Source: a virus
Reading direction: 5' to 3' (one strand)
Virus record (IMG/VR): IMGVR_UViG_3300009305_000018
Length of the DNA stretch: 64,000 nt
The notes beneath the pieces were generated by a model. It was not told where the DNA came from. It searched no databases and saw only the letters and a list, made by a program, of their open reading frames with translations. Position numbers and translations under genes: made by a program. Shown piece after piece: positions 22,067-41,322 of the stretch (positions are counted from its first letter, which is position 1; the number at the start of each line of letters is the position of its first letter).

Positions 22067-22654
22067 ATGGCAGGAGTACAAATTGGGTTAAAAGATTTAT
22101 TCTTTGCAGAGATTGACGAAACGACAGGTACGTACGGTACGCCCTATAAGATTGCAAAGGCAATTGAAGCATCGGTGACGGCAAACGTTAGTACCGTGGT
22201 TCTCTACGCTGACGATGGAGCGGCAGAAACGGCAAGTTCTGAGGGTGAAACAGAAATTTCACTCGGGATTGACCAACTGACTAATGAAGTTTATGCAAAA
22301 TTGCTAGGCAAAACAATCAATAGTGATGGTGTAGTACAAGATTCAAGCGGCGATATCGCTCCAAAAGGCGCTTTGATGTTCCGTTCACTTAAATCCAACG
22401 GAGGGTATCGCCACATTGTGTACTACAAAGGTTCATTCGCGCCACCAGAAGAGTCTTTCACAACTAAAGGTGAATCTATCGAATACAACACACCTACGAT
22501 TGTGGGGACGTTTGTACACTCTGACACTGTATTGAATGCTAAAGGAGAAGGTTTGAAACGTAGCGTTGTAGATTCTGACGACACTGCACTATCAGATCCT
22601 ACTATTGTCACGAACTGGTTCACAGCTGTTTACGAAGAAGTACCAACACCTTAA
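22067..22654 (+). CDS. Major tail protein (phi13 family)
   Basis: IGLKDLFFA, LYADDG, ALMFRS, YYKG.F. Confidence 0.9.
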   Translation: MAGVQIGLKDLFFAEIDETTGTYGTPYKIAKAIEASVTANVSTVVLYADDGAAETASSEGETEISLGIDQLTNEVYAKLLGKTINSDGVVQDSSGDIAPKGALMFRSLKSNGGYRHIVYYKGSFAPPEESFTTKGESIEYNTPTIVGTFVHSDTVLNAKGEGLKRSVVDSDDTALSDPTIVTNWFTAVYEEVPTP

Positions 22655-37443: not shown

Positions 37444-38304
37444 ATGGGTGGATTAATACTGGGATTAGATGCAGGGAATCACATGGCGAAGGTGGCAGGA
37501 CCTTACGGGGTGGATTCATATAGAACAGCCATCTGTGATTGGTTCGAACGGGATGTAGAAGAGTCATTCGGTAACGATGATATGGAATTTGAAATCTGTG
37601 GCAGAAAAGGGTTTGCAGGATCCATTGCTGAACATGAGGATGAATTCGGTGGTGGTTCAATGTTTGGCGATACCAAGGCGCATGAGGATACGAAAATAAG
37701 AGTGCTACTAGCAATCGTTCGTTATGTTAAAAAATACTGTCCACAAGAATACTCAGTAAAAATAGTGGTCGGGCAGCCAGTGAAAACACATAAGGAATCC
37801 GAGAAAAAGAAAATCAAGGATATGTTAATTGGTCATCATAATTTTGTAGTAAACGGCGCTCATAAAAATATAACCATTGAAGCGGTAGAGGTAGCTACAG
37901 AGGGTGGTGGTGCGTTCTGGTCAAACCCCGACAATGGCACGATTAGAGTATTAGACATAGGTAGCGGCACGGTGAATGCGGTCACGACAAAAGATAAGAA
38001 GTTCATTAATAATTCGTCGGAGACATTTAACTTTGGCGTCGAAACGATTAAAAATAAAGCTGATTTAGATGGGTTGTCCCGCGGTATCATCCGAAATACT
38101 ACTAAATTGAAGTGGCATAAGAATGACCGGGTATACGTCTGTGGAGGGATAGCAGAACAAATAGCGCCTTATATAGAAGAACACTATGCAAATTCAGAGG
38201 TGGTCTATCCACAGTTGCAGTGCCAGGACGGTGTTATCGCGGTTCAATCTGTGTTTGCTAACGCGGTAGGATTCTATAACATCGCAAAGGGTGTTTACAG
38301 ATGA
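37444..38304 (+). CDS. parM: ParM/StbA-family actin-like ATPase
   Basis: Phosphate 1 GLDAGN, connect EGGGA, phosphate 2 LDIGSGT, adenosine CGGIA, connect 2 NAVGFY. Confidence 0.9.
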   Translation: MGGLILGLDAGNHMAKVAGPYGVDSYRTAICDWFERDVEESFGNDDMEFEICGRKGFAGSIAEHEDEFGGGSMFGDTKAHEDTKIRVLLAIVRYVKKYCPQEYSVKIVVGQPVKTHKESEKKKIKDMLIGHHNFVVNGAHKNITIEAVEVATEGGGAFWSNPDNGTIRVLDIGSGTVNAVTTKDKKFINNSSETFNFGVETIKNKADLDGLSRGIIRNTTKLKWHKNDRVYVCGGIAEQIAPYIEEHYANSEVVYPQLQCQDGVIAVQSVFANAVGFYNIAKGVYR

Positions 38305-38847: not shown

Positions 38848-38899
38848 TTAAGAATAAAAAAAGAGGGGGCAATTAAGCCTCCTCTCTTTATTTTTAAGG
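38848..38899. terminator. Long inverted repeat / terminator downstream of the integrase
   Basis: TTAAGAATAAAAAAAGAGGGGGC-AATTAA-GCCTCCTCTCTTTATTTTTAA. Confidence 0.7.
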
Positions 38900-38937
38900 T
38901 GTGTTACATGTGAATTGAAGCTTGCCCTTCGTTGCAA

Positions 38938-40338
38938 CTATAACCGATTGAATTTCATGTCCGTCACTTCGTACTCATAAGCCTTAGGAACACCGTTCTT
39001 ATCGCGTTTCACGCACGTTCTACTGAATGAAATCTCGTTTACGAACAACGCCATAAACTCAATCGCTTCATCTTTTGTAAGTGTATCGAAGTTTTCTAAG
39101 ACCATCCATCTGAACTTTTCCGCATCTTCAACACTGATTTCGACTTCCTCTTCTAATATCTCGTTTTGTAACGAAGCTATTTCTTCGTTAGCGGATTTTA
39201 TGTTTCTTTGGAATTCTTCGTATGTCATGAAGTCGTCGGCATACATTTGTTGATACTTCAATCTCTTTTGTTCTAATTTCGAAATCTCATTCGTAATTGA
39301 TCGTGTGGGAGCAGGGCTTTTCTTTTTTTCTAACTCCTTTCCTTCCAGTTTGTCGTTTTGAATCTTTTTCATGAATGCTTCTTTAATGTATTTTTCATTC
39401 ACACGAACAAAGCCGTCACCATTTTCATAGCATTTGTTGCAGCGGTAGCTATTTTCAGTCTTGACTAGCGTCCTAGAACACTGTGGACATTTTAGCATTC
39501 CCGAAAACAATCCGCGTGTGGGGGCCTGCAACCTTACTATGTTTTGCTTTTCTATCCTGCGTGACAAGTCCTCAAATTCTTCTGTCGAAATAATCCCCTC
39601 AAATGCTCCTTCCACACTCTTGCCTGCATATACAACAGTTCCGCACAACGCTCGATTGCGCAACACTTGTCGGACTGTCTGATGACTCCAGTTCGCCTTT
39701 CGCGTTCTAGTGGGTATATTGCGACGGTTTAACTCTTGTGATACTCCAGCGACGCTACCGAGTGATTTAAATAGCTCTATCATCAATAGCACAACTTCTT
39801 TTTCTTCATCGTCAATTACTCTTTTTTTATCCACAATCTTGTATCCATAAGGTTGGGCACCCGACGCTTCGTTATCAATCAATATCTTTTGTTCCATTGT
39901 TATCGTGACCCGTTCGCCAAGGTTTTCACGTTCCCATTGCGCCAAGAGCCCGACGAGTCCTATAAACATCCTACCCATCGCTGTGGTTGTATCGTAGTTC
40001 TCTGTCGCTGATTTAAAGGCGCACCCGTGTTCATCGAGCAAACTAAGCGTGTCGAAAAGGTCACGAATGTTCCTAGTCATGCGGTCTAACCTATACACTA
40101 GCAAGATATTTATTTTCTTGTTTATAATGTCTTTTTTTAATCGTATGAAATCAGGACGATTCATATCTTTAGCGGAGTGGCCGGGATCTACGTATAGTTC
40201 TGTTTTCGTCCATCCTTGGGATTCACAGAACAATTTAAGCAAACGTGTCTGTGTATCTATTGAGTACCCTTCTTTGGCGCGTTCCTCAGATGATACTCTG
40301 ACATATATCCCGACGGTTGCATTTGTATTGGTTTCGAT
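38938..40338 (-). CDS. int: Large serine recombinase (integrase); probable non-canonical ATC start
   Basis: Frame open upstream of the TTG call and contains catalytic YVRVSS (Ser at 40291-93); D.G.S....RP, VYRLDR, recombinase domain, CPQC..C Zn ribbon, coiled coil. Confidence 0.85.
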   Translation of the reverse strand: METNTNATVGIYVRVSSEERAKEGYSIDTQTRLLKLFCESQGWTKTELYVDPGHSAKDMNRPDFIRLKKDIINKKINILLVYRLDRMTRNIRDLFDTLSLLDEHGCAFKSATENYDTTTAMGRMFIGLVGLLAQWERENLGERVTITMEQKILIDNEASGAQPYGYKIVDKKRVIDDEEKEVVLLMIELFKSLGSVAGVSQELNRRNIPTRTRKANWSHQTVRQVLRNRALCGTVVYAGKSVEGAFEGIISTEEFEDLSRRIEKQNIVRLQAPTRGLFSGMLKCPQCSRTLVKTENSYRCNKCYENGDGFVRVNEKYIKEAFMKKIQNDKLEGKELEKKKSPAPTRSITNEISKLEQKRLKYQQMYADDFMTYEEFQRNIKSANEEIASLQNEILEEEVEISVEDAEKFRWMVLENFDTLTKDEAIEFMALFVNEISFSRTCVKRDKNGVPKAYEYEVTDMKFNRL

Positions 40339-40436
40339 TTGTGGCGCATCCCTTCTATATAGAAGAAAGAGTTTATTCTTTCTCCAAGCTGTAATTGCTA
40401 TCTAGTTGCTAGAATAGTTTCTTTTGTCTAATATAT

Positions 40437-40464
40437 AGAACATTTATTCCTATCATGGTAGAAT
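40437..40464 (+). promoter_or_regulatory. SOS (LexA)-like box overlapping the -35 of a rightward extended -10 promoter
   Basis: AGAACATTTATTCC (core GAAC-N4-GTTC with one mismatch); TGgTAGAAT at 40456-64. Confidence 0.45.
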
Positions 40465-40565
40465 GGGAATATAAAGCAGTCTAATATTTAACAGAAAAGA
40501 AAATATCTTCTGTTATAATGAATTAAGCTGTTCGGCTGATTCCGGTCGGAGAGTAGACGAAAAAA

Positions 40566-40923: not shown

Positions 40924-41322
40924 TTAATCATTACGCATTTTATCGTGATATTCAACCGTAAAACGTATACTTTCTAAAAACTTGCCCCTATCTTCTTCAT
41001 TGAGAGACAGGGTTTTTTCTATTAATTGATTTAAAAATTCTACATCTTTTAAATTCATTTCATTCGTCATCCTCAAAGCGCGTTCAAGTTCGTTAGTCGT
41101 ATTCTCTTTATGGGGGAACAAATCATCAACTCTAATGTCAAACACTTCACTTAAAGCGAACAACACGTCTTGCTCTGGGGATATTTTGCCACGCTCATAA
41201 TCAGATACGGTATTATGCTTTACTCCGATCACCTCACCCAATTCCCTTTGTGTCATTCCTATCTTCTTTCTGTAGTAATGAATTTTCTTTCCGACGTACT
41301 CAGAAAGTTGCTTGCTATCCAT
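40924..41322 (-). CDS. cI: CI-like XRE repressor without an S24 peptidase domain
   Basis: HTH MTQRELGEVIGVKHNTVSDYERGK; helical C-terminus; SD AAGGAG; divergent from cro. Confidence 0.88.
   Translation of the reverse strand: MDSKQLSEYVGKKIHYYRKKIGMTQRELGEVIGVKHNTVSDYERGKISPEQDVLFALSEVFDIRVDDLFPHKENTTNELERALRMTNEMNLKDVEFLNQLIEKTLSLNEEDRGKFLESIRFTVEYHDKMRND

Follow-up and report, generated by a model that had tools for sequence, protein, structure and literature searches.

An ATC codon at the start position of a large serine integrase gene in a temperate Bacillales phage

The phage and its integrase gene

On the minus strand of the window (the whole 64,000-nucleotide stretch of viral DNA analysed here) lies a gene for a large serine integrase, with an attachment site (attP) at its 3' end and an actin-like gene on the opposite strand. 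The features considered below, with relatives' loci designated by L numbers, are:

38938-40338, minus strand: large serine integrase, 466 aa if started at the ATC at 40338, with Resolvase, Recombinase and zinc-ribbon domains
40336-40338, minus strand: ATC at the orthologous start-codon position, in register with the ATG of L001, the GTG of L002 and the TTG of L012
40291-40293, minus strand: catalytic Ser codon, residue 16 counted from the ATC, upstream of TTG 40242, the first canonical in-frame start
40347-40356, minus strand: Shine-Dalgarno (SD) site of the integrase, duplex with the 16S 3' end of -9.7 kcal/mol
40257-40349, minus strand: out-of-frame 30-codon ORF, its ATG overlapping the integrase SD and its stop a TAG at 40259-40257
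40362-40385, minus strand: 9-bp hairpin just upstream of the SD, in the same place as a terminator-like hairpin in L001, L002, L005 and L011 (region z = -2.4)
40438-40449, minus strand: LexA(DinR)-like box with one mismatch, 111 nt upstream of the integrase start
39652-39654, minus strand: private Pro-to-Arg change at residue 229 in the recombinase domain (CGA, versus CCT/CCA in the clade)
38900-38946, minus strand: intact attP overlapping the integrase stop codon, with the crossover near the CA at 38924-38923
37444-38304, plus strand: actin-like (ParM-like, ALP_N) gene, PF17989, 100% identical in prophage G001

The window is an exact repeat with a period of 41,360 (0 mismatches over 22,640 bases), such that the 41,360-bp genome is contained 1.55 times in positions 1-64000 and x and x+41,360 duplicate each other; the source is a single JGI/IMG contig of 84,469 bp, or ~2.04 genome copies. 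The 41-kb genome is that of a circular siphophage, present as a concatemer in the assembly. It is a temperate phage of spore-forming Bacillales whose host is probably Sporosarcina or a close genus: among named integrases the closest, at 75% identity, comes from Sporosarcina sp. FSL K6-5500, and a 200-aa gene product clusters at 90% with an S. psychrophila protein. Three public sequencing runs contain 5-8% of the window's words, no RNA run being listed.

Along the minus strand, the repressor (40924-41322) is followed in turn by a small Xre gene, integrase, attP, an Xre gene and the ALP cassette. Relative to the nearest phage, G001, the integration module has been swapped (window 38885-40530 vs. 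L111:1-1400), G001 having a tmRNA-targeting tyrosine integrase instead of the serine integrase, while the two phages are 93-97% identical across the virion and ALP modules and the same repressor/Xre pair precedes each integrase. In L013, a second recombinase of the tyrosine type is found among the late genes (L013:10533-11525), besides the serine integrase and the ALP gene.

By its sequence, the window's enzyme is an unremarkable member of the phi105-like large serine integrases found in temperate Bacillales phages. It matches PF00239 (E 5e-34), PF07508 (E 1.6e-16) and, just below the curated cut-off, the zinc ribbon PF13408, and belongs to a small clade (P0002-P0009, 52-77% identity) in which P0002 and P0003 are 75-77% identical to it over 99-100% of its length; the integrases of phi105 and Aeribacillus phage AP45 are 35-38% identical. 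The catalytic domain of TP901-1 integrase (3bvp) matches at E 3e-24 and aligns with the catalytic Ser, which is Ser in 117 of 118 homologues (one gap). The Y-x-R-x-S and D-R-x-x-R motifs are present (Y12, R14, S16, D85, R86 and R89 agree with the family), as are the Recombinase domain and the four cysteines of the zinc ribbon (C284, C287, C300, C303), and an AlphaFold model, which has no bearing on initiation, displays a normal domain fold (mean pLDDT 77). Domain order, catalytic motif and zinc ribbon are thus held in common with the integrases of phi105, AP45, TP901-1 (3bvp) and A118/LI (4kis), and attP lies beside the 3' end of int as for Bacillales large serine integrases. Unlike the phi105, AP45, TP901-1 and A118 integrases, however, the window gene has no canonical start before its catalytic Ser. 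The public gene call (P0001, 408 aa) lacks this Ser, so that integrase-mining pipelines would discard or mis-clone the gene.

The attP is identical at 41 of 47 positions to the attP-type junction of L001 and, as in attP sites of ~50 bp with a central dinucleotide, its best symmetry centre is a CA, around which 13 of 24 arm positions are symmetric. The integrated relative L002 diverges right after the core, a breakpoint that agrees with this CA centre. The two clade members seen integrated, L002 (L002:11393-12547) and L006 (L006:11375-12532), both target the 3' end of a host MFS transporter gene; no integrated copy of the window phage itself was found. When phages of this integrase clade insert, the stop codon of the MFS gene comes from the phage, and att pairs are readable from L001/L002 and L005/L006. 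Together, the integrase gene, attP and an MFS-gene attB deduced from the relatives would make a complete, testable recombinase set.

Position of the ATC codon and start codons of relatives

The last in-frame stop upstream of the integrase is the TAG at 40404-40402. It is followed by the in-frame start-like codons ATA 40401, ATT 40395, ATC 40338, ATA 40308 and ATA 40260, and then by TTG 40242, with no ATG, GTG or TTG in frame before the latter. The first-pass annotation had described a frame without a canonical start from the TAG to a point beyond the catalytic Ser, and our frame scan, which places this Ser at 40293, agrees. Six codons between the stop and the Ser are one base from ATG, and among these only ATC 40338 is served by an SD (the others score -0.4 to +3.6 kcal/mol).

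The same annotation took ATC 40338 as the start site, a choice which the relatives uphold, since they have ATG, GTG or TTG there in exact register. The ATC stands 16 nt behind a shared TATATAG motif, the same distance as for the ATG of L001 and the GTG of L002, and the Gly of VGIY is residue 10 in the window, L001, L002 and L012 alike. Read in register, codons 2-9 match at 15, 14 and 11 of 24 nt against L012, L002 and L001, respectively, compared with 4-9 when shifted by one base. This exact register with the relatives' start codons indicates that the placement of the ATC is not due to chance.

The SD comprises a contiguous block, AGAAGGGA, at 40356-40349, and the duplex energy of -9.9 kcal/mol in L001 and L002 is reached in the same register as in the window. 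The strong SD noted at first pass is thus confirmed, but its distance of 8 nt from the ATC counts from the G after a mismatch (40347), the contiguous block ending 10 nt before the ATC. The locus combines what is expected of a near-cognate start: no canonical start before the essential residues, an SD at initiating distance and a codon at the position of the homologues' start. The 16-nt spacing and the in-register codons 2-9 make an unseen indel improbable, and the most parsimonious history is that an ancestral canonical start codon was substituted, in line with the ATG>ATC-type change first proposed; with ATG, GTG or TTG in the relatives, we infer that the canonical start changed to ATC in this lineage alone.

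To evaluate how widespread such a codon is, eight clade relatives at 52-77% identity were compared at the DNA level, and 62 distinct family loci (these eight included) were scored after fifteen distant loci lacking the motif pattern (L080-L094) had been left out. The start codon is labile within the clade (5 ATG, 2 GTG and 1 TTG), and a non-canonical start occurs in 0 of the 8 clade relatives and 0 of the 62 family loci, so the ATC is private to one contig. Unlike that of infC, the rare codon is not conserved among orthologues, the nearest of which are 75-77% identical in protein. In searches for closer relatives, the protein collection yielded neither a near-identical N-terminal fragment (residues 1-140) nor another truncated call, a DNA pattern blind to the start codon (upstream motif, SD, VGIY codons) had no match in viral contigs, peptide-pattern scans of viral, genome and metagenome contigs, with patterns that were too specific, gave no close relative, and a 50%-representative protein library gave none closer than those already known. 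Synonymous sites are saturated even against the closest relatives, so that the change to ATC is undatable, and a small sub-lineage sharing it would be invisible.

Readings of the ATC codon

Overall, the ATC is most likely either a weak start peculiar to this phage or a sequencing slip, rather than a conserved control device. We consider the chances about even that it is real and that the AUC serves as a start, weak but usable. After binding at the SD, ribosomes would then use fMet-tRNA to initiate on the AUC, at a rate that is a fraction of that for AUG, giving the full 466-aa integrase with an N-terminal Met. Integration would probably be reduced, not abolished. The weaker start would be tolerated, as a few copies of integrase suffice and, in this clade, a LexA-type box and a hairpin apparently hold down transcription of the gene. 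The ATC would in that case be a nearly neutral further step in the drift between ATG, GTG and TTG that the same codon shows among the relatives, and no purpose-built switch.

Rates reported for such codons vary widely: in E. coli, AUC initiates at 1-2% of AUG, with an N-terminal Met (bioRxiv 10.1101/063800); in clostridia, the range for near-cognate starts, AUC among them, is 5-20% with some 5' UTRs and 40-100% with others (PMC9680021); and the natural ATT start of E. faecalis ebpA lies ~3.5-fold below ATG (PMC4447247). A literature search returned no figure for AUC efficiency in Bacillales (Bacillus, Sporosarcina), for which the clostridial and enterococcal values are stand-ins; should initiation in Bacillales resemble that in these Firmicutes, an AUC start could be tolerated for an enzyme needed in few copies. 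The likeness to ebpA lies in an SD followed by a near-cognate ATH codon, in a Firmicute setting, with the gene wrongly annotated from a canonical codon further downstream and homologues in other species that use ATG (PMC4447247); the difference is that initiation was shown experimentally for ebpA, with a phenotype, whereas the window ATC is known from the sequence of one contig. The ATC fails the test of conservation for an infC-type regulatory start. If real, it works like other AUH-initiated Firmicute genes and would be a further natural case of an AUC start in Firmicute systems, of modest significance, which would matter more only if close relatives shared it; our literature search, incomplete in coverage, found no earlier description of an ATH-type start on a phage integrase.

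A consensus error, in which the true codon is ATG and the single base 40336 was miscalled in one assembly, is unlikely. The ATC comes from one contig only (a count of "2 contigs" is a double listing, also given for G001 proteins), this contig is the 84,469-bp concatemer of ~2.04 genome copies, all 62 family loci are canonical, and G-to-C (a G/C transversion) is the rarest substitution class relative to G001 (78 of 1409). A second private change of the C-to-G type, P229R, falls on a Pro conserved in 116 of 118 homologues, which would fit error and decay equally. However, the assembly appears sound elsewhere: no orthologue is frameshifted relative to G001 and orthologous ORF lengths are kept, and 41 SD-led pairs compared with G001 include a non-canonical codon in two only, both of them shadow frames inside other genes. 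The two genome copies also agree at 22,640 of 22,640 overlapping bases, although they are not independent and the integrase lies outside the overlap. Finally, a full-length version of the integrase is absent from the protein collection, which means that the second copy in the contig did not yield an ATG-started gene call either.

It is also rather doubtful that the ATC, perhaps together with P229R, marks a real and recent loss that leaves too little active integrase, with the variant propagating lytically or as a circle. The genome was indeed assembled as a circle with attP and not as a prophage, but so were L001 and L005, which have canonical starts and were also assembled in the attP form. 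The E. coli rate of just 1-2% of AUG (bioRxiv 10.1101/063800) would suit such a loss, as would the private changes P229R and I97T at conserved columns and the mismatch in the LexA-like box, which is perfect in four clade relatives. Against it stand 466 codons free of stops and frameshifts, intact catalytic Ser/Arg/Asp and zinc Cys residues, a conserved attP, and departures from conserved columns no more frequent than on sister branches.

Evolutionarily, dN is 0.15-0.17 against L001 and L002 with synonymous sites saturated, which corresponds to long-term purifying selection. The four private departures on a branch of 0.16 represent a rate like that of the sister branches, with no excess decay, and in a 130-nt piece of a 93%-identical relative the six listed differences are all synonymous; the contigs aligned to the window leave 40244-40523, including the start codon, uncovered. 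Residue 229 starts a short helix in a well-modelled part of the AlphaFold model. Under the same test, however, the terminase departs at 1, the portal at 5 and the capsid at 3 conserved columns, and because essential genes of the phage depart likewise, P229R is suggestive at most; as proof of decay it was rejected for being non-discriminating. Like the start change, P229R could be a single C/G transversion. The first-pass remark that the usual EEQ reads EER is correct for the letters themselves, but does not amount to a departure, as P0002, P0003, P0004 and P0007 also have EER.

The loss of integration had been linked at first pass to a shift towards ParM-assisted extrachromosomal life, and the evidence does not support such a move from integration to maintenance by ParM. 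G001, the nearest virus record, carries the same ALP gene and is an integrated prophage: its ends show a tmRNA 3' end and a direct repeat of 21 bp, and its tyrosine integrase (357 aa) starts with ATG behind a strong SD. Four further ALP carriers (G002-G005) are classed as proviruses, two of them with ATG-containing tyrosine integrase frames, and L013 combines an ALP gene with a GTG-started integrase of the window's own clade. With the ALP cassette carried by integrated prophages, and so not specific to a non-integrating form, and with attP and the integrase ORF intact in the window, the features of a plasmid prophage are not found. In Corynebacterium prophage CGP3 (AlpC/AlpA), the actin-like gene sits on an integrating prophage and is used after excision (PMC4446434), which shows that an ALP gene does not imply plasmid-type lysogeny, although the host of CGP3 belongs to another phylum than that of the window phage.

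More improbable still is an AUC fixed by selection in an unsampled sub-lineage, which would lower integrase synthesis or make it IF3-sensitive, shift the balance between lysis and lysogeny as a counterpart of the ebpA ATT or infC AUU, and add a translational layer atop an SOS-linked control of integration and excision. Start codons of the ATH type that lower translation are known from infC (AUU) and pcnB, and the AUU of infC is conserved across bacteria, with feedback through IF3. The window's ATC, unlike that of infC, is conserved in no relative and has no evident feedback loop. The strong, correctly spaced SD has been retained, three of the eight relatives have weak starts (GTG, TTG), and, given the saturation of the nearest relatives, an ATC shared across a sub-lineage would escape notice; yet neither the protein collection, with no near-identical N-terminal fragment or second truncated call, nor the start-blind search of viral contigs yielded a second case, and the conserved control elements appear to be transcriptional. 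Deliberate throttling of the integrase, as first put forward, thus finds no footing as a conserved device (non-canonical starts: 0/8 in the clade, 0/62 in the family).

A start at an out-of-frame ATG (40349 or 40322), joined to the integrase by programmed frameshifting or hidden by a one-base indel error, is hardly credible: one extra A in the A-run before the ATC would bring ATG 40349 into frame, and one extra base after ATG 40322 would do so for the latter, but the former overlaps the SD and the latter has none, the 16 nt from motif to start equal those of L001 and L002 with no room for a missing base, codons 2-9 are homologous to the relatives in register, inspection of the 11 codons concerned revealed no X XXY YYZ slippery heptamer, and comparison with G001 revealed no indel errors elsewhere in the assembly.

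Overlapping frame and elements upstream of the integrase

The out-of-frame ATG at the SD does open a 30-codon ORF running from 40349 to the TAG at 40259-40257, as annotated at first pass. An ATG at 40349 that overlaps the SD cannot use that SD, and the ORF has none of its own. It is missing in L001, L002, L004, L005, L011 and L012, while L010 and L013 have out-of-frame ATGs with other ORF lengths. The ORF is probably incidental, and a role for it was rejected on two grounds, the missing SD and its absence from L001 and L002, the two closest relatives. An alternative hairpin sequestering the SD was likewise rejected, the SD being 0.50 unpaired, inside the relatives' range of 0.30-0.62.

Upstream of int, a promoter/terminator scan gave no minus-strand site. 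In L004, L010, L012, L013 and G001 (L111), int is preceded at a distance of 38-163 nt by a perfect GAAC-N4-GTTC box, the expectation for boxes with at most one mismatch being ~0.08 per 200 nt. Such a box is absent in L005 and L011, the two relatives with a self-cleaving S24-domain repressor. This suggests SOS control of int transcription itself, and integrase control in the clade appears to sit upstream of translation, at the LexA-type box and the hairpin. The perfect LexA-type boxes fall in relatives whose repressor lacks the S24 domain.

Two palindromes were also observed in this region, a perfect one of 12 bp at 40353-40364, which overlaps the SD and is kept in L001 and extended to 14 bp in L002, and an imperfect one at ~40411-40423, ~75 nt upstream of the start and common to L001 and L002; both are possible operators.
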